A DNA stretch of 64,000 nucleotides from Minisyncoccota bacterium (GTDB taxonomy: Bacteria; Patescibacteriota; Minisyncoccia; Phycocordibacterales; UBA918), in NCBI GenBank assembly GCA_022841645.1, contig JALHRC010000004.1:4078-68077 (forward strand), in the 5' to 3' direction. This document shows, one piece after another, positions 99 to 54,586 of this stretch. Below the pieces are notes generated by a model, which saw only the letters and a program-made list of their open reading frames with translations, was not told the DNA's origin and made no database searches. Position numbers and translations under genes: made by a program. The first letter of the stretch is position 1; every line of letters begins with the position of its first letter.

Positions 99-260
99 TT
101 CGCGAGCACTTAGCGGATTTAAGCGAAGCGTAAAATCTGCTTAGTGACTCGTGTGGACAAGGCGTGCCTTAATACTAGCCGCGTCCAACGTTCTTATAAG
201 CGTAGCGAGTTAGCACCACAAGAGTATTTCCATTTTCATAGTCGTTTCACTCCTTGAAAA

Positions 261-14945: not shown

Positions 14946-15228
14946 TATCAACATTTTACTCCTTATTATTAGTGCTGTGGAAGTGTGCACAACTGAAATC
15001 CATGTTGTACTTCAAGGATCTTTTTTTGGGTCATTCTTGTGTGTAATAGGTAACAGGGTGTGTTTAGCTGGGGACGGTGTTGTTTATAAGTGGAATGGAT
15101 TATTCCGTGGGGAAAAACTGCCTGGTTATACTCCTCCCTTAAGTTACTGTACGTGGTTTTGTGGGGTGCTTATCGGGTGGCTTACACAACGTTTTCCCCA
15201 GTGTTTTTGACAGTCTCGTCGCGCTGAT

Positions 15229-15264
15229 AAAAACAAAACCCTCTCTTTTGAGAGGGTTTTGTTT
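15229..15264 (-). terminator. Intrinsic terminator downstream of dnaA; the hairpin overlaps the dnaA stop codon
   Basis: AAAACAAAACCCTCTC-TTTTG-AGAGGGTTTTGTTT. Confidence 0.6.
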
Positions 15265-20026: not shown

Positions 20027-20028
20027 AC

Positions 20029-21000: not shown

Positions 21001-21040
21001 AGCAAAGTCAGGGGGCTAAGTGTGCAGTACTTACCCCCTA

Positions 21041-21856
21041 CTACCGCGGATAGCGTAGCATCGCAAGAAGATAAAAAATGAGCCAGGGAAACAGATTTGC
21101 TATAGGCACCGCGTACCCCACGATGCTAAGTAGCAGTAAACCGATTTTTAAACTACTCTTCTCACCAAATAGCGGCCGCTGGTGGCATAAAATATAAACG
21201 ACCACTACAGTAAATAGTATAAACAAAAATATACCTAATAAAACAATCTGGACTGCCATTGCAGCGCCCAGAAACCCACCAGTAAAGTTGGTTCCAAAGA
21301 TACCATTAAACAGGCTGGTCGCGGAACCAAGGACACTGAGCGTTAGCCGTCCGAGCCACGAGGCATTGAGTGATATTTCAAGTGCCAGAAACGCAAGAGC
21401 AATTCCCGCGATTGTTATCTGTACACTTGCCCAAAACGACAAATAGAGCGTTATTATAAGGCGTGTCAGGCTTTGATAGTGGAGTCGATTGAGGGCAACA
21501 GTTCGCGGAACAACACCCTGACTGTACTCGTGGGTAGTCAGGTCCGCAATCAGCGCCGCCTCTTCTTGTTGACGTAAGGCAGCCTTCCGCGCCTCTAGGT
21601 GGGCGCGCTCCTGCGCCAGCTCGATCTGGTAGCGTCTGCGTTCCTCCACTTCCGCTTCTGCTACCGTTTGTGCGTAAACATTTTGTTCACTGCTTAGTAA
21701 ACGTTCCCCCGTGAGGCGTTTGCTCTGGTCCTCAGTAAAACGCTTGTTCGTAGGTGTACCAGTGGGGGCACGTTTTCCGCGATCAACCGTTACCGTATTT
21801 TGCCAATCAGGCACGGCCTTTTTTTCTAGCTCTGCTTTGGAGAGTGGCCTAGCCAT
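21041..21856 (-). CDS. Coiled-coil + 4-TM membrane protein of the T4SS-like operon
   Basis: N-terminal charged coiled coil (ELAQERAHLEARKAALRQQEEAA), then four hydrophobic helices. Confidence 0.5.
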   Translation of the reverse strand: MARPLSKAELEKKAVPDWQNTVTVDRGKRAPTGTPTNKRFTEDQSKRLTGERLLSSEQNVYAQTVAEAEVEERRRYQIELAQERAHLEARKAALRQQEEAALIADLTTHEYSQGVVPRTVALNRLHYQSLTRLIITLYLSFWASVQITIAGIALAFLALEISLNASWLGRLTLSVLGSATSLFNGIFGTNFTGGFLGAAMAVQIVLLGIFLFILFTVVVVYILCHQRPLFGEKSSLKIGLLLLSIVGYAVPIANLFPWLIFYLLAMLRYPR

Positions 21857-21881
21857 GTCCTCATTGTACTACGAACGACTC

Positions 21882-23678: not shown

Positions 23679-23686
23679 ACAAATAA

Positions 23687-24319
23687 TTAACGATCAGCCA
23701 CTGGGGCGTGGGCGGTTGGCTCCCCTGGGTTGTAGACGTGGAAAAAGAACTCCACCAACTCGTCGTTACCGAGCGCAATCGTACGGATGCCCATTTGTAG
23801 CAATCCTTGCTCGATAATGGCAGTTCGTTGGTCGAGTTGCAGTCGCTGCTCTTCAAAACGCAGTTCGCCGGTTACCGCGCCCTTTCCTTTGGAAAGGATG
23901 GCACCAAAATTTTTAGAAATATTGAGGGGAGCAGCTGTATAAGGTACCACCACAAAAAAGCTTTTTGCCATCACGTTGTTGTCAGTGGTAAATTTTTTGA
24001 TGTACAAAAGATATTCACGTAGCTGCACGCGCATGAGGTCGTTGTCTTGCTTCTCCTCAAGCGCCCGTAGAGTATCAAGGTAGGGATCAATATTCATGCG
24101 TCGCGATTGAATGTAAATCTGGAGGCTAAAGTCGAGGGTATTAAGAAAGTTTTGAAACTGGAGCAGAAGCGCTTGTTGTTCGTCCTGCGATTTTAGGGCA
24201 AAGTTGACCGAAGAGGCTAATAAAATGCGACACAACTGCCCGCTTTTTAGGATCACTACCCCATCACGAATATCGCGAATGGTGACAAAGTCTTGGCTGG
24301 CGGGAGTAGCTTTTGGCAT
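23687..24319 (-). CDS. 210-aa protein that may be the N-terminal domain of a split VirB4, or a separate T4SS subunit
   Basis: Ends 8 nt before the VirB4 ATG. 210 + 598 aa is roughly canonical VirB4 length. Confidence 0.45.
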   Translation of the reverse strand: MPKATPASQDFVTIRDIRDGVVILKSGQLCRILLASSVNFALKSQDEQQALLLQFQNFLNTLDFSLQIYIQSRRMNIDPYLDTLRALEEKQDNDLMRVQLREYLLYIKKFTTDNNVMAKSFFVVVPYTAAPLNISKNFGAILSKGKGAVTGELRFEEQRLQLDQRTAIIEQGLLQMGIRTIALGNDELVEFFFHVYNPGEPTAHAPVADR

Positions 24320-24321
24320 GG

Positions 24322-24741
24322 TTATTCTTTTTTCTGGAGCGCTTGCATTTCAAGCGAGCGGGCAAGTGAGGTGATAGAGAGTCGTGGTCGGTGTGATGCC
24401 GGTATATCTTTAAGGAGGAGATCTTCCTCGCTGTGGTTTGGTGCAGCGGTGTACATCACTTCACCACGGCGTCGCCAGAGGTAGAGACGGGCTTGGCTGA
24501 AATAGAGGAACATTGCTTCGAGGAAATATTCTAAACGACGATTATTGACTTGGTAAAAGGCTAAAGCTAGGGCAAAGCTTCCAAGCGGTATGCCTAAAAG
24601 TACGAACACCCAAAAGGGGGTAGTAAGAAAGAGTACTACTCCCATCCCTATTCCGCCACCTAGATAGATAAACTGCCGCCAGGTGAAGGGGCCAAAGACC
24701 TTGTCTTCGATTTCAATGAACTGTGGCACGTCAAAACGCAT
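24322..24741 (-). CDS. VirB3/PrgI-like small membrane protein
   Basis: 139 aa with a hydrophobic hairpin (GGGIGMGVVLFLTTPFWVFVLLGIPLGSFALALAFY), immediately upstream of VirB4 as in other T4SS. Confidence 0.4.
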   Translation of the reverse strand: MRFDVPQFIEIEDKVFGPFTWRQFIYLGGGIGMGVVLFLTTPFWVFVLLGIPLGSFALALAFYQVNNRRLEYFLEAMFLYFSQARLYLWRRRGEVMYTAAPNHSEEDLLLKDIPASHRPRLSITSLARSLEMQALQKKE

Positions 24742-24821
24742 ACGACTACATTATACACGGGCGGCAGTGAGGTATCTGCCTCACCGTCGCCCGTGTATCC
24801 CCAACCACGTAGCTTTGTTAC

Positions 24822-25424
24822 CTATTTTCGTTCAGCACTTTCCCACTGTGGTACGTCGCCTCCCTTACGTGGTGTCCCTGGGCGCAGCAGGGTTGGCTGT
24901 TCTGAAACATGTACCGATGCGTCGTGGTGCTCTTGGCTCTGGAGATCCTCCATGTCCCGCGCCATGGTGCGGGATGGTGCAATGCGTGCCAGTGCTTCTT
25001 CAGCCTCAGCTATATCATTTTCCATTACGGTAGTGGTCGCCACGGGAGTGGATGGTATCGGCGGTACCGCAGTCACTGTAACCGATGCCTTATTATCAGC
25101 AGTTCTCTCTTCTTGCGGCGGTTGCCAATTAGAATCATTGAGGGGCTCCAAAGAATCCAGTAAGTCGGCAGTTATACGCAAAGCTTGTACATCAGAAATA
25201 GCCAGACTTTCCTTCAGAAGTCGAGGCAAATCCGTTTGAGGATAAAAGCCTAGAATAACGTCACCGATAATTAAGGCGTATGAGCTATATTGATCTTCAG
25301 TCAATCCGTTTTTTACAAAAATTTCTCGTAGTTTTTTTCCAGCACCAACATGCCCATACAAATATTTTTGTGCGGGTGTTCCATTTGTGTGGCGTTTATG
25401 GCGCTCTTGTTCTGTTGGTGACAT
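24822..25424 (-). CDS. Hypothetical soluble protein of the T4SS-like operon
   Basis: 200-aa ORF, no recognisable motif. Confidence 0.45.
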   Translation of the reverse strand: MSPTEQERHKRHTNGTPAQKYLYGHVGAGKKLREIFVKNGLTEDQYSSYALIIGDVILGFYPQTDLPRLLKESLAISDVQALRITADLLDSLEPLNDSNWQPPQEERTADNKASVTVTAVPPIPSTPVATTTVMENDIAEAEEALARIAPSRTMARDMEDLQSQEHHDASVHVSEQPTLLRPGTPRKGGDVPQWESAERK

Positions 25425-25429
25425 AAGAG

Positions 25430-27634
25430 CTAGAAGCTACGGCCTTGAGGAGTGTTAGTAAGCCAGTCATGTGCAATGTGTCCCGCAGGTGTGGCGGCCG
25501 CCGCTATAATATGGTCCCTTATTTCCTTTCTTTCTTTAGCATTAAGTACTTTGGCAATTTCGCCCAGTGCCCCACCAGTCAAGTGATTACGAATTTCAGC
25601 ACGATTGAGGATGGATTTTGGTAATTTAGCAATTTCTTCATTGTTTTTAAATTTGTTTAAGAAGGCCGGTATGCCACCCATACTGGCAGCTGTGTTGAAT
25701 GCGCTTACTAAGCCGGCAGTGTGAATATTAATAATTCGTTCCTTCTCAGTTTCAGTAAAGTCGTTACTCTTTTTAATGTCGTCAATTTGGCTAAAGGTGA
25801 GTTCGGTGGCGAGTGGTAACATGCCTGCGGCGCGGTCCTCTGTAAGTTTCCGTTCCCCAAGAACTTTAAGTTGACTAGAACTGGCCTTCTTAAGTCCTTT
25901 ATCAAGCGCAGCGTCGTCGCTCATGCCAGTGCGTGCAGCTGCCGCCGCAGCTTCCGCAGCGGCAGCTGTACCACCAGCAGCAATAACAGTATCTCGAGCC
26001 TTGTTGGCTTCTTCTGTACGAGCCCGCTCCTGCAGGGAGCCTGTAATAGATTCCTGGCGGGCAGTAGTTATGGCTGCCTTTTGTCCATCATTTAGATCCT
26101 CGTCCTTTGCTTTCATTAGAGCGTCATACTGGGGGGCAGAGAGACTAGCAATAAAAGCTTTGTATTCCGGAGAGCCTTCCTTCATGCCACCAAGCACTTT
26201 AAGGACCTGTTCGTTAGAGGCACTAGAGATTGCCCGTTCCATGGCAACTTTCTGATCAGGGGTAGCTCCGCTTGCTGAACCTGCTGTAACGGCACTTGAA
26301 ATAGTGCCGACTGCCTTCTTCCGGGCCATAAATCTATCGCGTTCATCGGAAGCATCACTAGCAGATTTCCAGGATGTAGATCCACCAAACTTTGCTTCTT
26401 TGGCAGATTTGGCAATACCTCGAAGGGAGCTGTCGCTTCGTACGCCCCAACCCTCAAGTTTTCCGTCAGCATATTTTCCAAACCGACCGACGCTATTTCT
26501 TCCCACAAAACTTTGTGCACTACCACGCATTTTATTCCCAAGATTAATCGCAGTACTCGCGCCGGCAATACTGAGCTTATTTGCAAATATCACCGAAGCC
26601 AGTAGGAAACCGCAGGCAATGAAGAATGTGGCAAATGCTTGAATGCCCCCAGCCGCCGCCGGGTCGCCACTGATTCCCGCCGAGCCGGTGATAGCGTCAA
26701 ACAGGCTGCTACGATTGGCTCCTTGTTGCGTGTTCTGGGCAGCCTGCATGGCTTGCATGACGCGCAAGGCCATATAGATCATCAGCAAAAAAACCGGTGC
26801 GAAAAAAATGTACGAAAAAAGCTGCTTGACGTATTTATCGGTCATCCCGCCCAGGCTGGGGAGCACTAATTTGAGGAACAAGAGCGGCGAGAGAATCATA
26901 AAAATATTGAGGGCAATAAAGCGTACAAGCAGGAGCACTCCGCCGACCGCAAAGCTGAAAGCTGCAATAATAAAAAGAATCAGCACGAGAAAAACGTACG
27001 AGAAGTGAGGAGTGTCGCGCTGCCAAAAGTTACCCCCCTGCCACACTGTCTGTAGCCCCATGCTGTCAAGAAACGCCAGCGACACGTTGGCGCGCCCAGC
27101 ACTGTCTACGAGGCCCAGCTGGGCTATTTGGACAGCGGCAATATTGGTGAAGTCAATGGCTGCCTTGACAAAAAAGAGGCTAAAATTTACCAGGAGGGCT
27201 GCAATCACTAGGTTGATCAAGGCTTTCTTAGCCGAGGCACTCTCCGCATCCCAAATGAGGCGCAACGCAATGTAAACGAGCCCAAAAATAAACGTTAGGT
27301 TGAAGATATCACGAACAAATTCCCATAGATTATTGACCGCTATGCCAAGTCCGCCGCCGGAGAAGCTTCGCCCAAAATCGACGATGTAGTTGGTAATTGA
27401 CCAATCCAAGAAGCTGCCCGTGATCCAAACAAGCAGGCCGAAGACTTGCACTACGAGTGACCACAAAAGGGCAGCAATGAAGTCATAGGCGACACCAAGA
27501 GGGTTCGGGGTGCCGGTACCCTGCGCAAATACCTCAACGGGCAGTAAGGACAGTACCACAGCAGCCGCAAGCAAATACGCCACAGAGCCGATACTGCCAA
27601 AAAAGAAGCGGCGGCGATGGAAACGTGTAACCAT
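25430..27634 (-). CDS. VirB6/TrbL-like polytopic membrane protein with a ~400-aa hydrophilic Ala-rich C-terminal extension
   Basis: Signal peptide plus at least 6 TM helices in residues 1-340. C-terminal half is charged and coiled-coil. Confidence 0.5.
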   Translation of the reverse strand: MVTRFHRRRFFFGSIGSVAYLLAAAVVLSLLPVEVFAQGTGTPNPLGVAYDFIAALLWSLVVQVFGLLVWITGSFLDWSITNYIVDFGRSFSGGGLGIAVNNLWEFVRDIFNLTFIFGLVYIALRLIWDAESASAKKALINLVIAALLVNFSLFFVKAAIDFTNIAAVQIAQLGLVDSAGRANVSLAFLDSMGLQTVWQGGNFWQRDTPHFSYVFLVLILFIIAAFSFAVGGVLLLVRFIALNIFMILSPLLFLKLVLPSLGGMTDKYVKQLFSYIFFAPVFLLMIYMALRVMQAMQAAQNTQQGANRSSLFDAITGSAGISGDPAAAGGIQAFATFFIACGFLLASVIFANKLSIAGASTAINLGNKMRGSAQSFVGRNSVGRFGKYADGKLEGWGVRSDSSLRGIAKSAKEAKFGGSTSWKSASDASDERDRFMARKKAVGTISSAVTAGSASGATPDQKVAMERAISSASNEQVLKVLGGMKEGSPEYKAFIASLSAPQYDALMKAKDEDLNDGQKAAITTARQESITGSLQERARTEEANKARDTVIAAGGTAAAAEAAAAAARTGMSDDAALDKGLKKASSSQLKVLGERKLTEDRAAGMLPLATELTFSQIDDIKKSNDFTETEKERIINIHTAGLVSAFNTAASMGGIPAFLNKFKNNEEIAKLPKSILNRAEIRNHLTGGALGEIAKVLNAKERKEIRDHIIAAAATPAGHIAHDWLTNTPQGRSF

Positions 27635-27636
27635 AC

Positions 27637-29385
27637 CTAATTTGAATAGAGCGGTGTTTGGTTAGTTTTCTTGCTCAAACTGTCAAGTGGTATGCCCCAG
27701 CGGTCGGCGGCGGCCTGTACTTCGTTTGGGGTGTGCAAGTCCGCCTTAATCTCAGGGTACTCTTCCATTAGCACAGCCTCGCGCTCGGCTCGCGTTGTAG
27801 CCTCATCGTAGTCTAGAATTAGATTTTGGAGATCAATGACATTATTTTGGATATCCGGTCGTAGTTCGCGAGCTTCAGCATAGGCCGCTCCGCTGCTACC
27901 TCCTTGGTCGTTCGTATAGCGCGCAATAACGGCGTTCGTGAGTTCAAGGTAGCTTTTTTCATTTTCAAGAGCAGTCATGAGCGTGCCGCGGTGGGAACCG
28001 CCGTCACTTTTTAGACGCATACCTTCAAGACCATATGACCAACGAATGGCCTGTGTCTCAACCTCGTCATCGCTTGGTAACTCGGCTGCCTTAGCAGCGA
28101 GATCTTTTAAGATGGTCACCCGTTGTTCGTCGGTCTTTGCATCTTGCAGCGCGAGGCTGACTTCCTCTAGTGCTAAAGCAATTTTTTCTAGTTCGAGGAC
28201 CTTTTCAGCAGCTTCTTTAAAGGTCGCATCAGCCCGTTTTTGCACCTCGGGATCATTGGTGTACGAGTCGAGATAGCGGTCAATAGTAGTTTCCGCCAGA
28301 TCAAGATAGCGTTTTGTTGCACGTAGTGATTCGTCGAGTAGTTGGACCGCTTGATTGATATTGACTGCCCCATAGAGTTCGTCTTGGAACATATCAATGT
28401 TAAACGATGGATTTTTATACCGACTGTTACCGCCGAGACCCAAAAGCCCGCGCACGCCACTTAGTGCTTGGAGAGCCACTTGACTCATAAAAGCACCAAT
28501 GAGTTCATTGATTTCATCAGCCTCTACCAACGACTCATTACCCAGCTGTAGCGTCTGATTGATTTGGCTGCTAATTACCTGCCCGGGGGTAACAATGCGG
28601 CAGACTTGTGGAGCTACACCCCCGCCGGGCACTGTGCGCGGTGGATCGCAAACTCGTGATGACAAGAAGCCTGCTCCCCACCCGCCGATTGTTAGTTGTT
28701 GTCCACGGGCATTTACAATTCGTGCGTGCAACCCTACGGTTGCTGAAATGCCGGCTCCGTACGGCGTATACACACTGGGGTTAAGAACCACACTGCGCCA
28801 GGCGGGCCACCCACCGGCATTAACATCCCCCCGGATGAAACCCTCTAAATTTTGGAGCATACCACTTAACGTACAGCGCCGCTGTCCTTTGTATCCCCGC
28901 TGGTAAGCAATCGAAACAGCCATTTGCACATCGAGTCGGAAAGGCGAGCAAATAATGGAAAGTTCACCATTCCATAGACTGGTTAGATAAGCAGCTGCTT
29001 CTTCATCGGCCACATCAACTAAAAACTGCCCGAGGTCCTGAATATAGGCGGGGCTGCCTTGAAATCCCGTATTCACCCAGCGAATGGTTTCTCGCATGAT
29101 CTGGGAAATCACAGCCTTAGCAAGGTGCCAGCCAACCGGTCGAATAACGGTGTCCCACCACCACTGCCGAGACGTGAGTGCCAACTGGGCGACGCCGGTG
29201 TAGGCACTGATAGTGCTCTCGATGGAGGTTCTGACCGACGCTAGCCAGGTCATTAAGTCGAACGTCGGCAGCTGCGCCAGTGCGACTTTTGGCTGTAGGC
29301 GTTCGACGGGTTGAGGCACGTACACTGCTACCGTGACAAACACGAAGGTGAGCAACGCAATGAGTGATGTGCTAAGTATCTTCAT
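27637..29385 (-). CDS. Large secreted protein of the T4SS-like operon
   Basis: N-terminal TM/signal. 582 aa. 4-nt overlap with the upstream gene. Confidence 0.5.
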   Translation of the reverse strand: MKILSTSLIALLTFVFVTVAVYVPQPVERLQPKVALAQLPTFDLMTWLASVRTSIESTISAYTGVAQLALTSRQWWWDTVIRPVGWHLAKAVISQIMRETIRWVNTGFQGSPAYIQDLGQFLVDVADEEAAAYLTSLWNGELSIICSPFRLDVQMAVSIAYQRGYKGQRRCTLSGMLQNLEGFIRGDVNAGGWPAWRSVVLNPSVYTPYGAGISATVGLHARIVNARGQQLTIGGWGAGFLSSRVCDPPRTVPGGGVAPQVCRIVTPGQVISSQINQTLQLGNESLVEADEINELIGAFMSQVALQALSGVRGLLGLGGNSRYKNPSFNIDMFQDELYGAVNINQAVQLLDESLRATKRYLDLAETTIDRYLDSYTNDPEVQKRADATFKEAAEKVLELEKIALALEEVSLALQDAKTDEQRVTILKDLAAKAAELPSDDEVETQAIRWSYGLEGMRLKSDGGSHRGTLMTALENEKSYLELTNAVIARYTNDQGGSSGAAYAEARELRPDIQNNVIDLQNLILDYDEATTRAEREAVLMEEYPEIKADLHTPNEVQAAADRWGIPLDSLSKKTNQTPLYSN

Positions 29386-36162: not shown

Positions 36163-36537
36163 TTACAGTGAAAGGAGATCTTCCTCTTCACGATGAGCAG
36201 TACACGTGCGGGCGGCCGGACTTGCGAGGAGACGCGCCTCTTCAATCGGTTCGCCAGAAACTTCGCAAATACCGTAGGTACCGATTTTGATTTTACTCAG
36301 TGCACGCTTCACGTTACGGTATTCGGTTTCGAGGACGGCCACTGTAGCGCGTCGCTCATTCCAATCCTCTACCACGTCCGCTCCGTCGTTGTGGTCTGGT
36401 TCAGAAGTCTCTCCCCCTACCGGAGCTGCTTCCCAATTGTCCGTGGCGTGATCGTAAGTGGCGATCCCTCGTAGCTCGTCCTCTAAGCGGGCAAGTTCGG
36501 CCTGAAGTGTGGCAGTTTGTGTGGCGATGTCTATCAT
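36163..36537 (-). CDS. DksA/TraR-family C4 zinc-finger protein
   Basis: C-terminal CEVSGEPIEEARLLASPAARTC, an acidic coiled-coil N-terminus. Confidence 0.6.
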   Translation of the reverse strand: MIDIATQTATLQAELARLEDELRGIATYDHATDNWEAAPVGGETSEPDHNDGADVVEDWNERRATVAVLETEYRNVKRALSKIKIGTYGICEVSGEPIEEARLLASPAARTCTAHREEEDLLSL

Positions 36538-38324
36538 ATGTCAGTAGTATACGGCGTTTCAGTACTTACGACGAGTGCGCGCAGCGCAGCAAAGGTAGCT
36601 TGATTGGTCGTGATAACAATGGTCGTGTCATTGGCAAAGCCGTACACCATTGTTGTCACCTCATCATCGTTTGAAAAGAGTCGTAAGTCTCGCCCATCCA
36701 GGGTTACATCGCGCCAACTTTGGCGGGCGGTGGGCTCGGAAACTATAAACGGAGAAAGCGCCGAAGGCAGCGTGGTTTCCCAGCGCAGCATGCCACCAAG
36801 TGCCGCCCGCGCGTCACTCACGCGCACCACGACAAACGGTGTTCGTCCTTCGTACCAACCAAAGGCAATAGCGGTGGCAGTTTGGGCCAGGTTTTGATCG
36901 ATGCCGCGATCGAGGAGGGTGAGGAGGCTGGGTGCTACTAGGGCGCCGGTAGGAGTGGTGACGGAAAGTTCGGTAGTGCTCTCTCCCGTATCGGCAGCGG
37001 TGAGAGCATTCATAAGCGCGTCGCGCTCAAGGACGGAGAGCGCGACCACACCCTGCGGTACGTTAAGTAGACCGTTACTTGTGTTCGTAAGAGCTGGTTC
37101 AGTATCTCCTTGCCACAGCGGCAGGAGATAGAACGTTGCGGTCCCAATTATAATGACGATGACAATTGCGGCAGCAATGTGCGAGGTAGTGAAAAATGTT
37201 CGCCAACTGCGTGCGGGCTCGGCCGCTGCGTAGCGACGTGGAGGAAACTCTACTGGTGCTATCTCAGGCTCAGGTAGTGCTTCTTCCTCTACAGCACTCG
37301 TCACTGGTATAGGTTCCGGAGTTACTTCTTCGCGGACGTACTCGACGGGCACGGGCGTAGCAACTGGCGGACTGACCGGTGGTTCTTCTACATAGACTGC
37401 GACCGGTTCTGGCTCAGGCTCTGGTGTTGGGGCAGGGGCGGGAGCTGGTGGTGTCTTCTCGACTTCTTCTACCACGGGAGAGGTTTCACTTTCATCCTCT
37501 TCACTTTCCCAACGCGGCGTCGGCGAGAGGCCACGACGTGGACGCGTGGTGACCTGCACATTGCTAAAGCCAGTCGTGGAAGTACCAGGCAGCAAAGGAA
37601 AAACACTTTCGGTATTCGGCGTCCAGGTGGTGTGCAGTTCTTCCTCGGGGGGTGGGTCAACCCGTCGTTGAATTTCACCACGGAGGTCGGACTCGTCTTC
37701 AGTTACTTCGCGGCCCGTCTGTGAGGTAGCTCGCTGAATAATGTCGCGCCGTGTCTCGGCGGCGGGCACTACCTTGGTGGTGGCCGTTTTGGCAATCTTC
37801 GCTTCGCGACGGCGCTTCCGCCACTTGCGCAGACCCTCGCGTACGCGGGCAAAAAACGACAAGCCACTTTTTTTGGTGTCAGTAATGATAGTTCCAGCAC
37901 TGTCGTCCTCTTCAATCACGACACGCGATTCGCTTGGGGGTGAGGGCGAACGATTCACTGTCGTGATGCCCTTTCGTAGTTCATGAAAGGGCAGTACAAC
38001 GGTGGGCATCGCACTCAGGTGTTCCGTGAGCGCCTCTTGGGCCGAGGCAGCGCGCTCTTCTGGTGGGTCGTCGCGCACCACTGCCCGTGGTGTCACGGTG
38101 CGCGGTCTTTCCTCCACTTCCTGCGGTGGCGGAAGTGTCTTCGGACGCGCTGCAACTACCCGTGACGGCACCACAATCGGCGCAGTCGAAAGGGGTGGCG
38201 TGGGTGTGGTGGGCTCATCGCTCACGGGTGCCGGCGCTAGCCCACGACGGGCACGCTCGGTTTCCAAATCACGAGCGTAGGTGCGCAGAGCGGGCAGCGA
38301 ATTTGGAGTTGGAGTATCCATCAT
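36534..38324 (-). CDS. Pro-rich, disordered membrane protein with a single TM near residue 370
   Basis: 596 aa. Long PxP-rich N-terminus, TM AAIVIVIIIGTATFYLL, C-terminal extracytoplasmic domain. 4-nt overlap with the DksA-like gene. Confidence 0.5.
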   Translation of the reverse strand: MMDTPTPNSLPALRTYARDLETERARRGLAPAPVSDEPTTPTPPLSTAPIVVPSRVVAARPKTLPPPQEVEERPRTVTPRAVVRDDPPEERAASAQEALTEHLSAMPTVVLPFHELRKGITTVNRSPSPPSESRVVIEEDDSAGTIITDTKKSGLSFFARVREGLRKWRKRRREAKIAKTATTKVVPAAETRRDIIQRATSQTGREVTEDESDLRGEIQRRVDPPPEEELHTTWTPNTESVFPLLPGTSTTGFSNVQVTTRPRRGLSPTPRWESEEDESETSPVVEEVEKTPPAPAPAPTPEPEPEPVAVYVEEPPVSPPVATPVPVEYVREEVTPEPIPVTSAVEEEALPEPEIAPVEFPPRRYAAAEPARSWRTFFTTSHIAAAIVIVIIIGTATFYLLPLWQGDTEPALTNTSNGLLNVPQGVVALSVLERDALMNALTAADTGESTTELSVTTPTGALVAPSLLTLLDRGIDQNLAQTATAIAFGWYEGRTPFVVVRVSDARAALGGMLRWETTLPSALSPFIVSEPTARQSWRDVTLDGRDLRLFSNDDEVTTMVYGFANDTTIVITTNQATFAALRALVVSTETPYTTDI

Positions 38325-43228: not shown

Positions 43229-43271
43229 AGTAGTTATGACGGATTCGAGCCGACTTTATTACTAGTTTGTC

Positions 43272-43311
43272 CACTAACCCCCGTCCCGTTAGGACGGGGG
43301 TTAGTGGACGC
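43272..43311. terminator. 18-bp perfect hairpin between the PG-binding gene and the PEP-utiliser gene
   Basis: GTCCACTAACCCCCGTCC-CGTTA-GGACGGGGGTTAGTGGAC. Confidence 0.5.
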
Positions 43312-43391: not shown

Positions 43392-44939
43392 TCAGGATGC
43401 TTTGGCAACCGTGCCGGCTGCCAGATCCAGTATCACTCTATCCCCCGTTACAAACACCTTGCTGCCGAGTCGCGTACCAATCACACAGGGTTTTTTAAGT
43501 TCGCGCGAAACAATAGCAGCATGGCAGGTGATGCCGCCTTCGTCGGTTACGATGGCCGCCGCTTTTTTCATGTAGGGCACGAGATGTGGATGGGTTTGGG
43601 TAGCGATAAGTATGTCACCTTCAGCAAAACCCAGCAGCTCGTGGTCGTTATTAAAGGCGCTCGTAAGAACAAAGACTCGACCGGCTACTGTGGACGTGGT
43701 GCGGTCGGGCCACGAGGCCACTGCTCCACTAACAGACTGTGTGCTTTTTATTTCTCCAGCGCGCGCTTCAAGTACAGCAGCGATGCGTCCCGTCGCCTCG
43801 CCCCCGGTGTAGTGGGTGACCCCGTCACGTTGGTAGATGGTAAGTAAGCCACGTTGGCGGTCACGCAGGAGTGCTGTGGGAACGGTTGTTCCGGTTTCAA
43901 TTAATGAGAGTAGCTCGTCGGCCGTGTACGACTTCATGTCGACGTCACTTACCCCGTAGTGCGACTTCATGGCGACGATGATAGTGTCGACATATTTTAG
44001 GAGGCACAGCATATAGGTCTGTAGGTCAAAACGCATCACCGACACGTGACCCATGATGTCAGCATGGCGGTAGACCTCCGAGGTTTCTTTCTCCAGCAGA
44101 AGAGTGCGTGCTTCGATGCGTTCTTCAAGTTCGATGAACTTGGTTCGTTCGCTTTGCAGGAACTCGGGATTATTGAGTAATACAGCAATCCGAGACTGGG
44201 CGTGTGCGTGGTCGATGTAGTCGCCACCAATTAATCCCCAAAATAAAAACCCGTAGCGCTCGACCGCATCCCTCAAAGTCGTTTCAAACACTGTGCTGTC
44301 GGAAAAGAGTGTCTCGGGTGGGCGGCACTGTTCGGCAAAGTCGTGAGCGCAATGGGCGAGACGACTGTCGATGGTGCCTAGATACGTGAGGCGTCGACCG
44401 GTCGAGGAGAGAAGTTCGAGATCGGCGTGCGGGAGGTGGTCGGCCAACAGTCGTTCAAATTGCCAAAAGCGCTGTGGCTGGGTCTGCAGGTAGTACGACA
44501 TAATAAATGTCGTGAGTGTACGAACATCCCGTATGAATTTTGCGAGTGTTGACGGGTTTTCTATGAGCAGTAATGACTCCCGAGTAGCGATTTCGGCAAA
44601 GTAGCGGTCGTGCAAGCCTTTCGTTTGTTCATAGGCGTGGTCAATGGCGTCTTCAAATCGAGCAACAAATGTTGGGTCACTGAACGTAGCAAATCCCACC
44701 CCCGCTTCTTCTTCTAAGCTGTCTTCGGGAAACGCGCCAAAGAAACATGAGGTCGGACTGTTTTGTGTGTAGGTGATCCAACCCTCAGGGGCGTAGCCAG
44801 AGAGGTCGCGCATGGCAAAGTAGCTGGCTTCATTGATCCACAACCCAGCACGATCTTGAAACCATACCGGACTGTACTGTGTCTGGTCGTACATAATCCG
44901 CACGTCAGCGGAGAGGGCTTGTGGGTGTCGTGCATTCAT
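43392..44939 (-). CDS. PEP-utilising-enzyme mobile (phosphohistidine swivel) domain protein with an unrecognised ~400-aa N-terminal region
   Basis: C-terminal GGITCHAAIVSRELKKPCVIGT (PEP-utilisers phospho-His motif). N-terminus lacks the PPDK_N ATP-grasp RSS..ED signature. Confidence 0.6.
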   Translation of the reverse strand: MNARHPQALSADVRIMYDQTQYSPVWFQDRAGLWINEASYFAMRDLSGYAPEGWITYTQNSPTSCFFGAFPEDSLEEEAGVGFATFSDPTFVARFEDAIDHAYEQTKGLHDRYFAEIATRESLLLIENPSTLAKFIRDVRTLTTFIMSYYLQTQPQRFWQFERLLADHLPHADLELLSSTGRRLTYLGTIDSRLAHCAHDFAEQCRPPETLFSDSTVFETTLRDAVERYGFLFWGLIGGDYIDHAHAQSRIAVLLNNPEFLQSERTKFIELEERIEARTLLLEKETSEVYRHADIMGHVSVMRFDLQTYMLCLLKYVDTIIVAMKSHYGVSDVDMKSYTADELLSLIETGTTVPTALLRDRQRGLLTIYQRDGVTHYTGGEATGRIAAVLEARAGEIKSTQSVSGAVASWPDRTTSTVAGRVFVLTSAFNNDHELLGFAEGDILIATQTHPHLVPYMKKAAAIVTDEGGITCHAAIVSRELKKPCVIGTRLGSKVFVTGDRVILDLAAGTVAKAS

Positions 44940-44981
44940 AAGAAAAGTATACGCGTTCTGATAAAAGTATAAATAATTTGA

Positions 44982-45010
44982 GGGGCGGCGATCCAGAGAC
45001 CGCCACCCCC
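44982..45010 (-). terminator. Terminator hairpin of histidine-phosphatase-like copy A (GGTGGCGGTCTCTGGATCGCCGCC on the - strand, with a U-G wobble)
   Basis: Paralogous to the hairpin at 45834-45860. A complete stem forms only on the minus-strand RNA. Confidence 0.5.
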
Positions 45011-45020
45011 CGATCGTTCG

Positions 45021-45710
45021 TCAGTCGAGTTTGATATGCGACCACCAGAGGTGGTTGCCGCTCGGGATGCTGGCGATGATCCCAGCGTCCAAGTAGTTGA
45101 TCATGATGGTGGGACCTCCGCAGAAATCCACCAGCCCGCCGATCTCCTCGACCCCCACCTTGGTCTGGTCCGGAATCCAGGTCCGGCATGCCAGGTAGTA
45201 GAGCTTGAGGAGGTACTCGATCACGCCCGAGTGGCTGATTGCCACCACGAGCGGCCGCTCATCCGCCGGACGATTGGCAGCGATTGCTCGGATGAACTTG
45301 TTGACCTCAAGCGCGTGGTCACGGCCCGTGAAGAGAGCGCCCGGCAGGAGCTGCTCGAAGTGCTCCTCGACGAGCAAACTCGTGGCGGCCGCCTCGGTGT
45401 ACCCGCTCCCGAGTCGCTCCCTGAGGAAATCCCCCATCACGTCTCCGTCGATGTGGTTCATCAGTCCGACGAGGTGCGGATTGGTCTTGACCTCGCAATC
45501 GACGCCGATGGTCTGCGCAAAGCGCTGGAGCGCCGGGATGCACTGCTCCCCGCGCTTGTGGCCGCTGACGAAGAGACGGAGCGAGGTGAATTCACCGCTT
45601 CGCCACTCCTTCACGAGCTGGTCGTGGAGGGCCTGCAGACCCTCTTCCGTGACGTCGCCGTCCCGGTCCTTCGGCGGGTGACGACGTAAAAGAACTTTGA
45701 TCAATCCCAT
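45021..45710 (-). CDS. Histidine-phosphatase-superfamily-like protein, paralog A
   Basis: N-terminal LLRRHPPKD (RHG-like) and C-terminal VVAISHSGVIE (the hSHg motif of PGAM/SixA-like enzymes). Clearly homologous to 45884-46630. Confidence 0.4.
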   Translation of the reverse strand: MGLIKVLLRRHPPKDRDGDVTEEGLQALHDQLVKEWRSGEFTSLRLFVSGHKRGEQCIPALQRFAQTIGVDCEVKTNPHLVGLMNHIDGDVMGDFLRERLGSGYTEAAATSLLVEEHFEQLLPGALFTGRDHALEVNKFIRAIAANRPADERPLVVAISHSGVIEYLLKLYYLACRTWIPDQTKVGVEEIGGLVDFCGGPTIMINYLDAGIIASIPSGNHLWWSHIKLD

Positions 45711-45883: not shown

Positions 45884-46630
45884 TCAGTCGAGCGAGACCT
45901 TGAGGCCCCGCAAGTGCCGGCGGTCGAGTATCGCACTCGCTTCCCCGTCACTGTCGTAGGTGATGGTGATCATCGGCCCCTCGCAGAAGCCCAGGAGCCC
46001 GCCGAGCTCCTTGGCGCCCACCTTCGTGGCGTCGGTGATGTTGGGGTGGTTCTCGAGGTAGACGGTCTTGAGCCAGTCCTCGACGACCCCGGAGTGGCTG
46101 ATCGCCACCACGAGTGTCTTCTCGCCGATCGGCTCTTCCCGCGCGACGGTGCGTACCATTTCACCGATCTGCGCTCCGTGCTCCCGCCGCGTGAACGGGC
46201 AGCCGGGAAACTCCTGGTCGTAGTACTCCTTGATGAGCAGGTGGTTGCCTTGCTTTTCAAAGTCGGCACTCGGCGGTTCGTACTTTGGACGACCGTCAGT
46301 GACCGCCGTCACCGCGGTTCCCAGCTGCTGGTTCAGCTCCGCGATCATCGCCTCCCCGTCGATCCGATCGGCCAACCCCTGGAGGAGCGGGCTCGTGCTC
46401 ACCGTACACGTGATGACGATCGTCCGCGTGAAGCGCTCGAGTACCGAAATGCTCTGCTGACCACGCGGCAAAGGGCTCACGAGGAGCTTGAGCGAATCGA
46501 AGCCGCCGATCCGCCACAGGGTGGTGAGGAAGTCGTGCAAGGTGTTCTTGCCGCTCCCCTTCAAGTTGCCGGTCGCCGGATCCTTCTCCGGATGCCGGAG
46601 GAGGAGAATCGTCGTCGTGCGTGTGGCCAT
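45884..46630 (-). CDS. Histidine-phosphatase-superfamily-like protein, paralog B
   Basis: LLLRHPEKD ... LVVAISHSGVVED. Shares extended blocks with paralog A (TKVG..ELGGL..FC.GP.I.I.Y ... LD end). Confidence 0.4.
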   Translation of the reverse strand: MATRTTTILLLRHPEKDPATGNLKGSGKNTLHDFLTTLWRIGGFDSLKLLVSPLPRGQQSISVLERFTRTIVITCTVSTSPLLQGLADRIDGEAMIAELNQQLGTAVTAVTDGRPKYEPPSADFEKQGNHLLIKEYYDQEFPGCPFTRREHGAQIGEMVRTVAREEPIGEKTLVVAISHSGVVEDWLKTVYLENHPNITDATKVGAKELGGLLGFCEGPMITITYDSDGEASAILDRRHLRGLKVSLD

Positions 46631-49442: not shown

Positions 49443-50455
49443 GAGTTAGGACACCACCACTTTAAATACTGTCCATCATACCACTTCGCTGCGCCACCTC
49501 CCGCGCACTGCGATAGCCCAGGATCTTCCTGGGCTTTTCGTTTATTAAGTGGACCGCCAGGTCCACCGCTGCCTGAGTCACCGTACTGAAGTCGGTCCCC
49601 TTGGGAAAGTAGCGTCTCAGCATCTTGTTGGCATTCTCCACCCCACCTTTCTGCCACGAGGCATAGGGATGACAGAAGAAGGCAGGTATACCAACGCGCG
49701 CATGGTCACGATTTTCAATACCGTTATCTCTCGTGATGGAACGAGCCTTGAGGGTGCTCGTGAGGGTCACTTCAACGGCCGCGTGCTCGGCTGGTTTCAT
49801 ACTTCTGACTTTCTTCGCTCCGATCAGTCGACTCTTGCGTTCTGAGACGACTTTAAGGCCACCCTTAGTACCCCACCGTCCCACGATAGTGTCACTTTCA
49901 AGGTGACCGTACCGTGTGCGGTGGTTAGCCCCCTTGGAGCGCTTAGATATATCAATGCGGTGTGGGATCACTGACCGTTTGGCTTTGGGGCGATGCTTCT
50001 TCACGCGTTTTCGACCAGAATAGAGGTGAGCGCAGTACCGCTCACCTCGTGCCGTACGCAGCCACTCATAGATGGCGGTCTTGGAGACGTAGCCGGGACA
50101 CCGTCTCGGGTGTTGCTCCATGTACCCAGCAATCTCGTCAGGGTTCCAGTGGCTTTGGAGCTTAGCAATGATAAAGGCTTTGAGTGCTGGGGTGGCTTCA
50201 ATCTTGGCGTACTGGAAACGCCGCAGTCGTTTGCGTACCCGTACCTTAGCGTCGGCTTTAAGTGGCTGGTACACACCAGCCACACTGTTCTTGGTGATTT
50301 CATAGGCGATGGTGCTTTTGCCCCGTCCAAGGGCCGTCGCAATAGCGCGACGGGAATAGCCCCGCGCGTGCAAGATCCCAATTTCTAAACGTTCCGCTCG
50401 ACTCAAATCCTTGATGCCTTTCATAGTACTGCTGATTATGCAGTGTCCTAACTCA
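49443..50455. mobile_element. IS30-family insertion sequence (~1.0 kb) with short 12-bp terminal inverted repeats GAGTTAGGACAC
   Basis: IR at 49443-49454 and its reverse complement at 50444-50455. Encloses a single transposase ORF. Confidence 0.55.
49462..50424 (-). CDS. IS30-family DDE transposase
   Basis: N-terminal HTH (LSRAERLEIGILHARGYSRRAIATALGRGKSTIAYEI). Catalytic region with HLESDT and further acidic residues. 320 aa. Confidence 0.8.
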   Translation of the reverse strand: MKGIKDLSRAERLEIGILHARGYSRRAIATALGRGKSTIAYEITKNSVAGVYQPLKADAKVRVRKRLRRFQYAKIEATPALKAFIIAKLQSHWNPDEIAGYMEQHPRRCPGYVSKTAIYEWLRTARGERYCAHLYSGRKRVKKHRPKAKRSVIPHRIDISKRSKGANHRTRYGHLESDTIVGRWGTKGGLKVVSERKSRLIGAKKVRSMKPAEHAAVEVTLTSTLKARSITRDNGIENRDHARVGIPAFFCHPYASWQKGGVENANKMLRRYFPKGTDFSTVTQAAVDLAVHLINEKPRKILGYRSAREVAQRSGMMDSI

Positions 50456-50488: not shown

Positions 50489-50767
50489 CTACTCAAACAA
50501 ATCAGAGTGGCTTCCAATATCAACGAGGAGTAACACGAGCTCGTTTTGGAATATCTGATATACAAGCAGGATGTCACTTTTGATATGGCACTCACGGTAG
50601 TTTTTCATTGAGCCAATAAGTTGGTGGTCACGGAACTGCGGGGGCAGAGGCTGTCCTTTGGAAAGTAGGTCTACTACTTGTTCTAGGCGAGATTGATCAA
50701 AATCTTTGTGACGACATACGCGCTTGAGTGAGGACTTGTACTTTCGTGATAGAACAACGTCGTACAT
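50489..50767 (-). CDS. yafQ: Type II toxin, YafQ/RelE family
   Basis: DHQLIGSMKNYRECHIKSDILLVYQI is the YafQ signature. Confidence 0.75.
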   Translation of the reverse strand: MYDVVLSRKYKSSLKRVCRHKDFDQSRLEQVVDLLSKGQPLPPQFRDHQLIGSMKNYRECHIKSDILLVYQIFQNELVLLLVDIGSHSDLFE

Positions 50768-50770
50768 AGT

Positions 50771-51043
50771 TTATTCACTGAGAATATCGCGGTGCGCCTC
50801 TTGAATCGTCTTATAGCGTTTGCCATGCTTGAGTGCGTGTTTAGCGTCGCGAATGAGCGCCTGTTTCTTTTTTTCTGAAACGTTGTCGTAGGTAAAGAGC
50901 TCAAACGGGATTGACTGCGTGCGCACGACTTGGGTGAGAAAGAGTTTTACCCCCGTCGAAAGATCAAGCCCCATTCGCTCGAGGGTCTTTTTAGCATCTT
51001 TTTTTAGCTTTGCATCAATGCGTGTTTGCAGGGTGGTGTTCAT
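50771..51043 (-). CDS. dinJ: Type II antitoxin, DinJ/RelB family
   Basis: MNTTLQTRIDAKLKKDAKKTLERMGLDLSTGVKLFLTQVV. Positioned immediately upstream of the toxin. Confidence 0.75.
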   Translation of the reverse strand: MNTTLQTRIDAKLKKDAKKTLERMGLDLSTGVKLFLTQVVRTQSIPFELFTYDNVSEKKKQALIRDAKHALKHGKRYKTIQEAHRDILSE

Positions 51044-52722: not shown

Positions 52723-53634
52723 TTACTGCGCTTCCGAATAAAGTGAAAAGAGCGCCGTCACTGCTGGCCAATTGCGTTCCCATTCAGTACTTTGCCAGCC
52801 CTCGAGCTCGACCGTCACAGCGGGAATACCGATAGATGCAAGCCAGCCTTCAGCATCACCAGTAACAGGATAGGCGTCAAAGCTTTCTACCGCACCATAC
52901 TTCCCTGCTGCAGCGTAGGTGCGCATCAGGGAAAGGGTCTCAGGCAATACGCCATTCTCGCACTCAGAAGCATACACATTATTCGCTTGGCTATGCCAGA
53001 AGACCACTCCTTGTGGACGGGTCGCGAGCACGTAGTCGCGCAACGAGGCCGCCTCAGGTTCGGAGAACGGTGCACTGCCAGCACTCACCGCTGCACCACG
53101 CCAGGTGGAGGTTGATTGCCACTTACAGTCGAAGTTGCGGTTGAGGTCAACCTCGCGCGCGTTGAAGCGGCCCTCCGCCACACGCTCGCTTTGTATGGTG
53201 ACATCGTCGATGGTAAAGCGACCAGAGGAGGCGACTACCGTAGAGAGGCCGTCGGGGTTAAGTACAGGAATGATGTGGATGGTAAGGTCGGGTGGAACGA
53301 GTGTGGGGTCGGCAGCCAGTATGTCCATCACTTGGTAGGCGAGTAATGAACTGTTCCACTCATAGCCGCCATGAATACCACCGACAAACAGAAGTGAGGT
53401 AGAACCGTTCCCAAACGTGTGTGCTTCAATCGCTCGTCCTTCGACTGAGGAACCGATGACGCGCATGGTTTGCCACGGTAACGCTGGCGGTGCTTCGGGT
53501 AGGGTGGGTACAGAGGGAGTCTCTACAACCGGCGCCGGCCGTAGCAGGAGGAAGAGGCCCGCGGCGACGGCGAGACAGGCGATAAAGAAAAGTACCGAGA
53601 AAGCCTTAAGAGAAGACTGAGGGCGAGGCGGCAT
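52723..53634 (-). CDS. Membrane-anchored M14-family zinc carboxypeptidase-like protein, paralog 1
   Basis: N-terminal TM. GGIHGGYEWNS (compare the M14 HxxE zinc motif) and VFWHSQ (compare M14 HSYSQ). Confidence 0.5.
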   Translation of the reverse strand: MPPRPQSSLKAFSVLFFIACLAVAAGLFLLLRPAPVVETPSVPTLPEAPPALPWQTMRVIGSSVEGRAIEAHTFGNGSTSLLFVGGIHGGYEWNSSLLAYQVMDILAADPTLVPPDLTIHIIPVLNPDGLSTVVASSGRFTIDDVTIQSERVAEGRFNAREVDLNRNFDCKWQSTSTWRGAAVSAGSAPFSEPEAASLRDYVLATRPQGVVFWHSQANNVYASECENGVLPETLSLMRTYAAAGKYGAVESFDAYPVTGDAEGWLASIGIPAVTVELEGWQSTEWERNWPAVTALFSLYSEAQ

Positions 53635-53647
53635 GGGGGTCGGCTAG

Positions 53648-54586
53648 CTACTGCGCTGCCACTGCCTTCATAGCAGCTTCAAGGCCGCGGCGATTCTTTT
53701 CCCACTCAGTTGACTGGTGGTCGGTAAGGAGGATGCTGATGGCGGGGATGTCCTGCTTAGCAAACCAGTTCATCATGTCGCCAGTAATTTCATAGTAATT
53801 AAACTCATCATGGGCGGTGTATCCCGAGGCGGTCGCGAAGGTCTGCATCAGGGCCCTCGTCTCGGCAGAAACGCCATCGCCACAGTTGGAAGCGTAGACG
53901 CCGCCGGCGGCACTGTACCAGCCAATGACAGCTGTTGGTGGGTAATCGGCTACATAGTCACGGAGCGCGGCTGCCTCAGGCTCTGAGAAAGGTGCACTAC
54001 CGCCACTTACATTGCGACTCCGCCAGGTGCCCTGTGCTTCCCACTCACAATCGAAGTTGCGGTTGAGGTCGACGGTGTTGGCGTTAAAGCGGCCGGCGAT
54101 ACGAGCGGCTTCGCTCGTGGGGACTGCCGCCGTGGTAAAGCGGCCAGTGGTCTTTACTGTTTCCATAAGTCCGTCAGCGTTAAAGGCTGGGATAACGGTT
54201 ACCATCACTCCTTCCGGTATAACGTCTGGGTTGTCACCTAGGTAGTCGACAATGTCGTGACCAAGGAGCGCGGTGTTCCATGAGTAGCCGCCGTGGATGC
54301 CGCCTACGAGTAGAATTTCTTTGGTACCCGTACCGAAGTGGTAGGCGGTGATCGCTTCCCCACCGGCCGAAGTGCCGATGACCGTACTCTCACCACGGAC
54401 GGCGGGAGTGACGTCAGTCGTCGTGGTAGCTACTGGCTCGGGAGTAACCACTGGTGTCGAAGGTGTGTCAGAAGGGTCTGGTGTATCGGTAGTGAGTTCG
54501 GTCGAACGACTCATAAATAGATAAAGACCACCAATAACTACGATAATCAAAGCTCCGATAAGCAACAGCGGGGTTTTTGTTTGCAT
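53648..54586 (-). CDS. Membrane-anchored M14-family zinc carboxypeptidase-like protein, paralog 2
   Basis: Same motifs (GGIHGGYSWNT; GWYSAAG) and same architecture as the adjacent paralog. Confidence 0.5.
   Translation of the reverse strand: MQTKTPLLLIGALIIVVIGGLYLFMSRSTELTTDTPDPSDTPSTPVVTPEPVATTTTDVTPAVRGESTVIGTSAGGEAITAYHFGTGTKEILLVGGIHGGYSWNTALLGHDIVDYLGDNPDVIPEGVMVTVIPAFNADGLMETVKTTGRFTTAAVPTSEAARIAGRFNANTVDLNRNFDCEWEAQGTWRSRNVSGGSAPFSEPEAAALRDYVADYPPTAVIGWYSAAGGVYASNCGDGVSAETRALMQTFATASGYTAHDEFNYYEITGDMMNWFAKQDIPAISILLTDHQSTEWEKNRRGLEAAMKAVAAQ

Follow-up and report, generated by a model that had tools for sequence, protein, structure and literature searches.

The gene described here lies on the minus strand of a 64,000-nt stretch of DNA (the window, analyzed at its full length of 64 kb). 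It begins with an ATG codon, encodes a protein of 515 aa and follows two paralogous genes on the same strand. The window also carries dnaA-dnaN, PolA, PBP1 and a type IV secretion-like block, a gene content consistent with a small bacterial genome. The features recognized at the locus are listed below.

43269..43309, minus strand: perfect 19-bp hairpin, 83 nt past the stop codon, with no T-tract after it (dG -39.9 kcal/mol, z -9.7)
43392..44939, minus strand: coding sequence of the 515-aa protein, a putative substrate-binding and phosphohistidine-swivel subunit (ORF, 53-sequence family alignment, AF2 model)
43413..43625, minus strand: PEP-utiliser mobile (swivel) domain, residues 439-509 (PF00391, E 2.2e-22; PEP synthase 8a8e, E 5e-20)
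43521..43523, minus strand: codon of His473, the predicted phosphoryl carrier, in T465-DEGG-I-T471-C472-H473 (translation, alignment, published motif)
43740..44939, minus strand: mostly helical N-terminal domain, residues 1-400, probable homologue of the rifampin-binding (acceptor-binding) domain of rifampin phosphotransferase (RPH)
44946..44973, minus strand: promoter-like TTTATA-16-TATACT, ending 7 nt before the ATG (consensus match only)
44980..45011, minus strand: GC-rich hairpin (stem of 14 bp) that separates the 229-aa gene from the target gene (dG -28.7 kcal/mol, z -5.4)
45021..45710, minus strand: upstream hpl gene, 229 aa, divergent histidine-phosphatase-superfamily protein with the R-H-P, R-G and H-S-G motifs kept (hpl profile, E 1.6e-94)
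45884..46630, minus strand: further paralogue upstream, 248 aa, with a fold of the histidine-phosphatase superfamily; R12 H13, R56, E125 and H179 are invariant

The 515-aa protein has approximately 57 full-length homologues of about 500 aa (36-73% identity), whose labels name Saccharibacteria, Patescibacteria and Woesearchaeota. Comparison with its closest relatives gave dN values of 0.19-0.24 and dS values above 2, that is, a dN/dS of roughly 0.07-0.11, which is approximate because dS is saturated. Among 113 positions that are at least 90% conserved in the rest of the family, 107 are kept by the window protein, the six departures being F65C, Y70F, K413R, I486V/L, K497V/T and D500Q/E. These homologues, the low dN/dS and the conserved positions indicate a real gene rather than a chance ORF, and the substitution pattern argues that it is under purifying selection. 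The hairpin past the stop codon is likely the transcript end, the hairpin upstream of the gene is a possible terminator or attenuator, and the promoter-like site, being 7 nt from the ATG, may give rise to a leaderless transcript. With two strong hairpins bracketing the gene and a promoter-like site before its ATG, the target gene is suggested to form its own transcription unit.

A single Pfam domain, PF00391 (PEP-utilizers; PEP-utilising enzyme, mobile domain), was found in the protein. This bears out the C-terminal PEP-utiliser His domain of the original prediction, as motif scans do for its statement that neither an RSS..ED signature nor a Walker motif precedes this domain: the 515-aa protein contains no Walker A motif and is matched neither by PF01326 nor by our ATP-grasp profile. 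The segment 43497-43547 (minus strand) translates to TDEGGITCHAAIVSREL, and both H473 and T471 are invariant in the family alignment (n = 53 sequences). All NCBIfam and PDB sequence matches of the protein, which include PEP synthase, PPDK, pyruvate kinase, Enzyme I, RPH and PigC/RedH, are confined to residues ~395-513. A further swivel-like match in the window at 213-389 (minus strand) was dismissed as chance (8.8 bits, antisense to a real ORF). Elsewhere in the family, one locus (L033) carries four swivel ORFs in a row.

The N-terminal region proved more difficult to place. Residues 1-400 had no match in Pfam, NCBIfam or phmmer searches, nor when a 53-sequence profile was searched against PDB sequences, where only the swivel was matched; at these levels the region is indeed unrecognized, as had been claimed, whereas at the level of fold it is not. 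Predicted from the family alignment, the AF2 model has high confidence along its whole length (mean pLDDT 93.5, pTM 0.91); residues ~1-400 form a largely helical domain, and the beta-rich swivel comes after it. When this model was searched against the PDB with Foldseek, the best six matches were all Listeria RPH (E 4e-11 to 2e-9, ~600 columns aligned), with TMq values of 0.45-0.48 for four wild-type entries and 0.30-0.32 for two G527Y mutants. All other PDB matches (PPDK, pyruvate kinase, Enzyme I) covered the swivel only, with a TMq of ~0.18.

Homologues bridging the two architectures point the same way. A swivel-free profile of residues 1-400 matches a 790-aa protein (P0095) at 349-639, between its PPDK_N and PEP-utilizers domains, and matches the same inter-domain region of a second protein (P0081). 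Such a family profile is needed for this result, since phmmer with the single sequence of residues 1-400 did not reach P0095. Moreover, some members of the N-domain family are themselves fused in-frame behind an ATP-grasp, among them P0138 and an 835-aa ORF (L015/L037) with the grasp at 6-317, the N-domain at 329-720 and the swivel at 722-826. On the basis of the Foldseek matches together with the profile homology to grasp-fused relatives, residues 1-400 appear to correspond to the rifampin-binding (acceptor-binding) domain in the center of RPH, a known fold without a Pfam model, and the proposed equivalence with the RPH acceptor site rests on the predicted fold and these bridging homologues. 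The invariant polar residues of the domain are Y17 D18 Q19, Q59, Q154-P155-Q156, R303, R361 and R393.

A swivel fused to a truly novel partner domain, which the original prediction had raised and which a confident match of residues 1-400 to a known fold was to decide, can now be given next to no probability. What might still speak for it is the silence of Pfam, NCBIfam and PDB sequence searches, even with the 53-sequence profile, and the rarity of the N-domain family (24 representative clusters among 1.84 billion proteins). Against these stand the homology that profiles reveal with the central part of relatives fused to a grasp, and the confident match to the RPH central domain, which refutes novelty at the fold level. 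Of the profile and structure searches that had been proposed, the library profiles remained silent and the structure search returned the RPH fold, which by the criterion of the original prediction speaks against a novel domain. A 709-aa relative (P0047) that resembled a phosphatase-carrier fusion was also rejected; no match was found for its 220 additional residues, after which the usual N-terminus of the family picks up at residue ~221, and we attribute it to a mis-called start.

The ATP-grasp that is missing from the polypeptide was looked for in the neighborhoods of 44 loci representing 28 distinct family members, which were collected by exact-protein look-ups and by scanning genomes and metagenomes with the N-domain alone as the query. 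Home-made profiles were used to score N-domains, swivels, partner ATP-grasps and two types of phosphatase in them. Of the 21 loci with sufficiently long flanks, 14 have a PPDK_N ATP-grasp, whether as an adjacent gene, as part of a neighboring fusion protein or through in-frame fusion. Eleven of these 14 carry a standalone grasp gene of ~315 aa, in nine cases overlapping or ≤36 bp downstream; in L004 and L006 it lies one gene upstream of the family member. The grasp resides inside a larger neighboring fusion protein in L005, L008 (which has a standalone copy too) and L011/L033, and is fused in-frame with the family member in L015. An RSSAT[A/S]ED signature is present in all partner grasps.

No ATP-grasp was detected in the window by tblastn with three grasp queries, by regex or by a grasp HMM (7 sequences, filters off) run on six-frame ORFs (best E = 3), and the RSS(2-3)ED / RSSxxxED signature occurs neither in the 515-aa protein nor in any of the six frames of the 64 kb. 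The gene therefore has no detectable grasp on either side, over 43 kb downstream and 19 kb upstream. The same holds for the flanks of its three closest relatives, including 1.6 kb downstream of P0002. The window clade (the window, P0002/L016, P0003/L017 and L021; 68-100% identical) shares the order hpl then target, without a grasp, and the ORF is intact in all members. The next clade, represented by P0005 (49% identical, same sample series), has a complete overlapping hpl-target-grasp operon. In a midpoint-rooted NJ tree the window clade forms a separate deep branch, so that the direction of grasp loss is not readable from the tree alone.

Standalone ATP-grasp homologues are very common: at least 7,970 clusters were retrieved at E ≤ 1e-20, the best 120 of which are all 65-99% identical. 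They are mostly ~315 aa in length (range 297-473), and their source names point to Patescibacteria lineages, in which they rank among the most conserved and abundant proteins of their type, while their swivel partners are very diverse. In one locus (L046) a grasp, a His_Phos_1 protein and a swivel protein form a trio, and in another (L044) one grasp is found 4.7 and 7.7 kb from two swivel-only proteins; the N-domains of the L046 swivel protein (L046_483) and of the 434-aa swivel-only protein of L044 are unmatched by the N-domain family profile of the target. Two 'ncbi,lgn' grasp candidates, homologues of the grasp of the nearest clade, were considered as partners from the same organism and discarded, as both come from unrelated samples. 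Because standalone grasps are so common and so highly conserved in Patescibacteria, a grasp that is encoded elsewhere, and is possibly shared, could plausibly charge the window protein in trans. The original prediction had offered a standalone carrier charged in trans. That layout is a known one and is supported by the adjoining PPDK_N genes of relatives; on the other hand, the protein would also bind the acceptor, and the 64-kb window holds no partner.

Two alternatives bear on the missing grasp. The protein might be a decaying, non-functional remnant left by loss of its partner, as the lack of an adjacent grasp in the window clade could imply. This is very improbable given the ORF intact in every clade member, the dN/dS of the gene, the retention of nearly all conserved positions including the whole carrier motif, and the conservation of the partner hpl genes in the clade. 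Alternatively, the clade may have lost the grasp and become an ATP-independent phosphotransferase, with His473 shuttling phosphate from a phosphorylated donor to an acceptor in the N-domain, maybe together with the two adjacent histidine-phosphatase-type paralogues. Histidine-phosphatase-type enzymes work via phospho-His intermediates. The absence of a grasp from 64 kb and from beside the gene in the three closest relatives, the persistence of purifying selection without one and the duplication of the phosphatase-like gene in the window are all in keeping with such a role, and HpeH alone is reported to move phosphate from phospho-product to substrate (PMC12167813). We nevertheless regard it as unlikely, since most family members keep a dedicated grasp and standalone grasps are near-ubiquitous in related lineages, where they can sit kilobases from swivel proteins. 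The swivel residues are, moreover, almost unchanged in the window clade, which would fit continued use of the same charging partner.

A histidine-phosphatase-type gene is adjacent in 22 of the 28 family members, its place being taken in L005 by an LMW phosphatase (LMW-PTP). Two types were distinguished. The first is a bona fide His_Phos_1 protein of 191-199 aa encoded on the opposite strand (L004, L007), with related hp1-type ORFs at the same position in four further loci (L010, L012, L029 and L040); the second is the divergent hpl protein of ~230-285 aa, encoded on the same strand directly upstream. The 229-aa hpl protein of the window is 41% identical to its 248-aa paralogue and homologous to L006_284 and L008_283, each of which lies between a PPDK_N gene and a family member. 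Neither window paralogue is matched by PF00300 in Pfam, and the orthologue L006_284 reaches 20.1 bits against a cut-off of 21.7. An hhalign comparison of the small hpl and hp1 alignments gave a probability of 9%, and a fold search then settled the question: both paralogues have the PGM-like alpha/beta fold of histidine phosphatase branch 1, including its catalytic R-H, R, E and H. A homologue search with the 248-aa paralogue returned one other cluster only, so the partner model was built on a 3-sequence alignment. Beyond the trio of grasp, carrier and phosphatase, no metabolic context conserved across the family loci was seen.

The phosphatase partners raise the possibility of a protein kinase or phospho-relay, in which the acceptor would be a protein side chain, for instance on the adjacent histidine-phosphatase-like protein, and the phosphatase would reset it, much as SixA acts on NPr~P downstream of Enzyme I-Ntr. 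Three interchangeable phosphatase types occur beside family members (hpl, SixA-sized His_Phos_1 of 191-199 aa, and LMW-PTP), and these kinds include protein phosphatases. SixA, a His_Phos_1 protein, takes phosphate off a phosphocarrier that a swivel-domain enzyme has charged (PMC7948535), and the PEP-synthase-like T-C-H is kept, its Thr being a regulatory phosphosite in PEPS and PPDK (PMC12167813). We consider this reading quite improbable, and a small molecule the most likely acceptor.

Taken together, we think it likely that the 515-aa protein belongs to a split RPH-family dikinase as its HpeH/PpsA/CreH-type subunit, which binds the acceptor and carries the phosphohistidine; in this genome it would be charged in trans. 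It would be more than a carrier, because the acceptor-binding domain is also on it. By homology with RPH and with HpeHI/PpsAB (PMC4844700, PMC12167813), a separate PPDK_N ATP-grasp protein of ~315 aa would bind ATP, His473 of the swivel would attack the beta-phosphate and become pyrophosphorylated, and the gamma-phosphate would be hydrolysed off as Pi, with AMP leaving. The swivel would then return to its own helical N-domain and hand the phosphate to a hydroxyl of the bound acceptor; D18, Q19, Q59, Q154, Q156, R303, R361 and R393 are candidate residues of the acceptor site. The third partner, of histidine-phosphatase type, most likely strips phosphate; its target would be the product, a later intermediate or the phospho-carrier itself. 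In the last case, the reset of the phosphohistidine would resemble the action of SixA on NPr (PMC7948535).

More speculatively, Patescibacteria and some DPANN-labelled archaea might operate a modular network of ATP-driven phosphoryl transfer in which one highly conserved standalone ATP-grasp charges many swivel carriers, each with its own acceptor domain and typically paired with a histidine-phosphatase-type enzyme; we offer this as a tentative and rather doubtful extension. If true, it would constitute a three-component kinase/phosphatase module without a characterized counterpart, and the window clade would be a carrier and a duplicated phosphatase uncoupled from a dedicated charger. Such uncoupling would imply promiscuous trans-charging or an ATP-independent role in phosphotransfer.

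Split RPH-type dikinases have been recognized as a subfamily only recently, and to our knowledge all characterized two-component members act on phenolic substrates in free-living bacteria. The locus would extend the same split enzyme to lineages that are ultra-small and depend on hosts, where its acceptor-binding domain is a different and rare one and a phosphatase is its conserved partner; our literature search found no paper describing this system in Patescibacteria or DPANN lineages. Once identified, the acceptors would explain what thousands of proteins annotated as 'PEP-utilizing enzyme' do in reduced genomes and could reveal the trapping or activation of scavenged metabolites, or the inactivation of host-made antibiotics. 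As a lesson for annotation, the labels 'PEP-utilizing enzyme' and 'PEP synthase' are wrong for such proteins.

Several known systems share parts of this architecture. In RPH, an ATP-grasp (1-314) is followed by the RIF-BD and then by the swivel (767-865), as in the RPH-Lm structures (PDB 5HV1, 5FBS, 5FBT and 5FBU; PMC4844700). The acceptor site of RPH includes R666, E667 and K670. The 515-aa polypeptide lacks the counterpart of RPH 1-314 and shows an identity of 13-16% to RPH-Lm; the RPH model NF041857 of NCBIfam scores 33.2 bits, over residues 395-509 only, against a cut-off of 999, which falls short of that family, and we found no evidence for rifamycin as a substrate. PEP synthase provides the closest swivel sequence (8a8e), including the G-G-x-T-C-H-A-A-I motif. 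In contrast to PEP synthase and PPDK, however, the protein has neither an ATP-grasp nor a PEP/pyruvate TIM-barrel, its swivel is C-terminal rather than central, and the PEPS equivalog models score 92 and 83 bits, where their cut-offs are 598 and 740. Enzyme I of the PTS has an HPr-binding helical subdomain inserted in the swivel and a PEP-binding C-terminal domain. This architecture is absent from the target, which gives weak swivel-only matches to Enzyme I (E 6e-5 to 2e-2) and no PEP-utilizers_C match. The window paralogues share their fold and the catalytic R-H ... R ... E ... H with histidine phosphatases of the SixA/PhoE/CobC type, bona fide His_Phos_1 proteins holding the equivalent position in other family loci; they differ in a C-terminal beta extension and, for the 248-aa paralogue, an insert of ~35-45 residues.

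The closest counterparts are the two-component RPH-family dikinases, a class described between 2004 and 2025. The split dikinases HpeHI, CreHI and PpsAB (PMC12167813) had been left out of the list of known architectures in the original prediction. In these two-component RPH homologues, HpeI, CreI and PpsB are the ATP-grasp subunits, whereas HpeH, CreH and PpsA, with ~45% identity among themselves, combine a RIF-binding-like domain with a C-terminal swivel bearing the motif T/SxxGGxxxH; the subunits form a transient complex only (Dexter et al. 2025, PMC12167813). As judged from this described layout, the target has the same order of a probable RPH-type acceptor domain and a C-terminal T/SxxGGxxxH swivel, with no ATP-grasp in the polypeptide. 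Its relatives likewise have an adjoining separate PPDK_N gene of ~315-340 aa, and ping-pong dikinase chemistry via phospho-His is presumably common to both. The differences are also considerable. The window protein is shorter than HpeH (515 versus ~640 aa), no similarity between its N-domain sequence and known models was detectable, and the PRK08296-type models of NCBIfam align to its swivel only, which suggests a subfamily separate from HpeH/CreH/PpsA. HpeH, CreH, PpsA and RPH all have Met at -2 from the catalytic His and no regulatory Thr (PMC12167813), whereas the target has Thr471 at -2 and Cys at -1 (T-C-H as in PEP synthase); the Met is common to the characterized members but does not strictly define the class. 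No grasp partner adjoins the gene in this window, and the hosts of the target family are Patescibacteria or DPANN-labelled MAGs without an aromatic-catabolism gene context. Finally, the target family has a conserved partner gene of histidine-phosphatase type, a kinase-phosphatase pairing absent from the characterized trio. The locus probably represents a rare acceptor-domain subfamily of two-component RPH-type dikinases, distributed in Patescibacteria and DPANN-labelled MAGs, with no adjacent grasp in its own clade and with a conserved histidine-phosphatase partner.

The standalone ATP-grasp (PPDK_N) protein, the putative charging partner of the 515-aa target, is strikingly conserved (65-70% identity) in many Patescibacteria lineages and very abundant, with at least 7,970 clusters, whereas its swivel partners are much more diverse. 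It was located in a relative's contig, with homologues P0139-P0258, as follows:

L019, 6473-7417: standalone PPDK_N protein, about 315 aa

Several swivel-only proteins per ATP-grasp, arranged in clusters, were observed in the relatives' contigs L033 (1-7503), L044 (8001-16948) and L046 (327-3467). L033 has a row of four consecutive swivel ORFs. L044 contains a single standalone grasp, with two swivel proteins at distances of 4.7 and 7.7 kb and G6PD, 6PGD, PfkB and AdoHcyase genes in the surroundings, and the gene order in L046 is HTH, grasp, His_Phos_1 and swivel protein. The N-domains of the swivel proteins tested, one of 434 aa from L044 and one of 483 aa from L046, gave no match to the N-domain profile of the target family. 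The canonical trio of phosphatase, target family member and grasp is also present in L010 (contig CAZQXB010000001.1, 913,817 bp). The title of this record reads 'uncultured Gammaproteobacteria bacterium'; this label may be wrong, since the 914-kb size and the gene content are nearer those of a near-complete Patescibacteria genome.

Directly upstream of the target gene lie two His-phosphatase-like partner genes:

45021-45710 (-): His-phosphatase-like partner, 229 aa
45884-46630 (-): His-phosphatase-like partner, 248 aa

This tandem duplication was observed only in the window's own lineage, and the gene is single-copy in the close relatives L016 and L017. Compared with the 248-aa copy, the 229-aa one lacks a low-confidence insert of ~36 residues (roughly positions 108-145 in the longer protein) and carries SGHKRG instead of SPLPRG.

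The target gene is flanked on both sides by unusually stable hairpins, neither of which is followed by a clear T-tract, and a promoter-like site (a consensus match only) ends just 7 nt upstream of its ATG at 44939:

43269-43309 (-): hairpin, dG -39.9 kcal/mol, z -9.7
44946-44973 (-): promoter-like site, TTTATA-16-TATACT
44980-45011 (-): hairpin, dG -28.7 kcal/mol, z -5.4

Because of this short distance, and with no Shine-Dalgarno sequence visible, the mRNA from which the target is translated may be leaderless.

Several other genes in the window were annotated, the Peptidase_M14 paralogues (side by side) via the identical contig L002, from whose gene calls the coordinates of the toxin-antitoxin region were also transferred:

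36534-38324 (-): 596-aa protein
49462-50424: HTH_38 protein
about 50489-51043 (-): RelB/YafQ-type toxin-antitoxin pair, adjoining the HTH_38 protein
52723-53634 (-): Peptidase_M14 (carboxypeptidase), paralogue 1
53648-54586 (-): Peptidase_M14 (carboxypeptidase), paralogue 2

The 596-aa protein, which had zero matches in Pfam and NCBIfam, is located between PNPase on one side and a DksA/TraR-type zinc finger and a Lon_C/Mg-chelatase-like ATPase on the other.

The chromosomal replication origin probably lies within the window, as dnaA and dnaN occur together and the cumulative GC skew reaches its minimum (~12-14 kb) right beside this pair (13851-16648):

13851-14990 (-): dnaN
15263-16648 (-): dnaA

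Further along, a TraG/VirB4-like ATPase is flanked by large ORFs, for which the Pfam search returned zero matches:

18824-20026 (-): large ORF, 400 aa
21882-23678 (-): TraG/VirB4-like P-loop ATPase
25430-27634 (-): large ORF, 734 aa
27637-29385 (-): large ORF, 582 aa

T4SS_pilin genes are present in the relative locus L007, and the block at 18824-29385 (-) may represent a type IV secretion system or a pilus-like one, such as is known from Saccharibacteria relatives.
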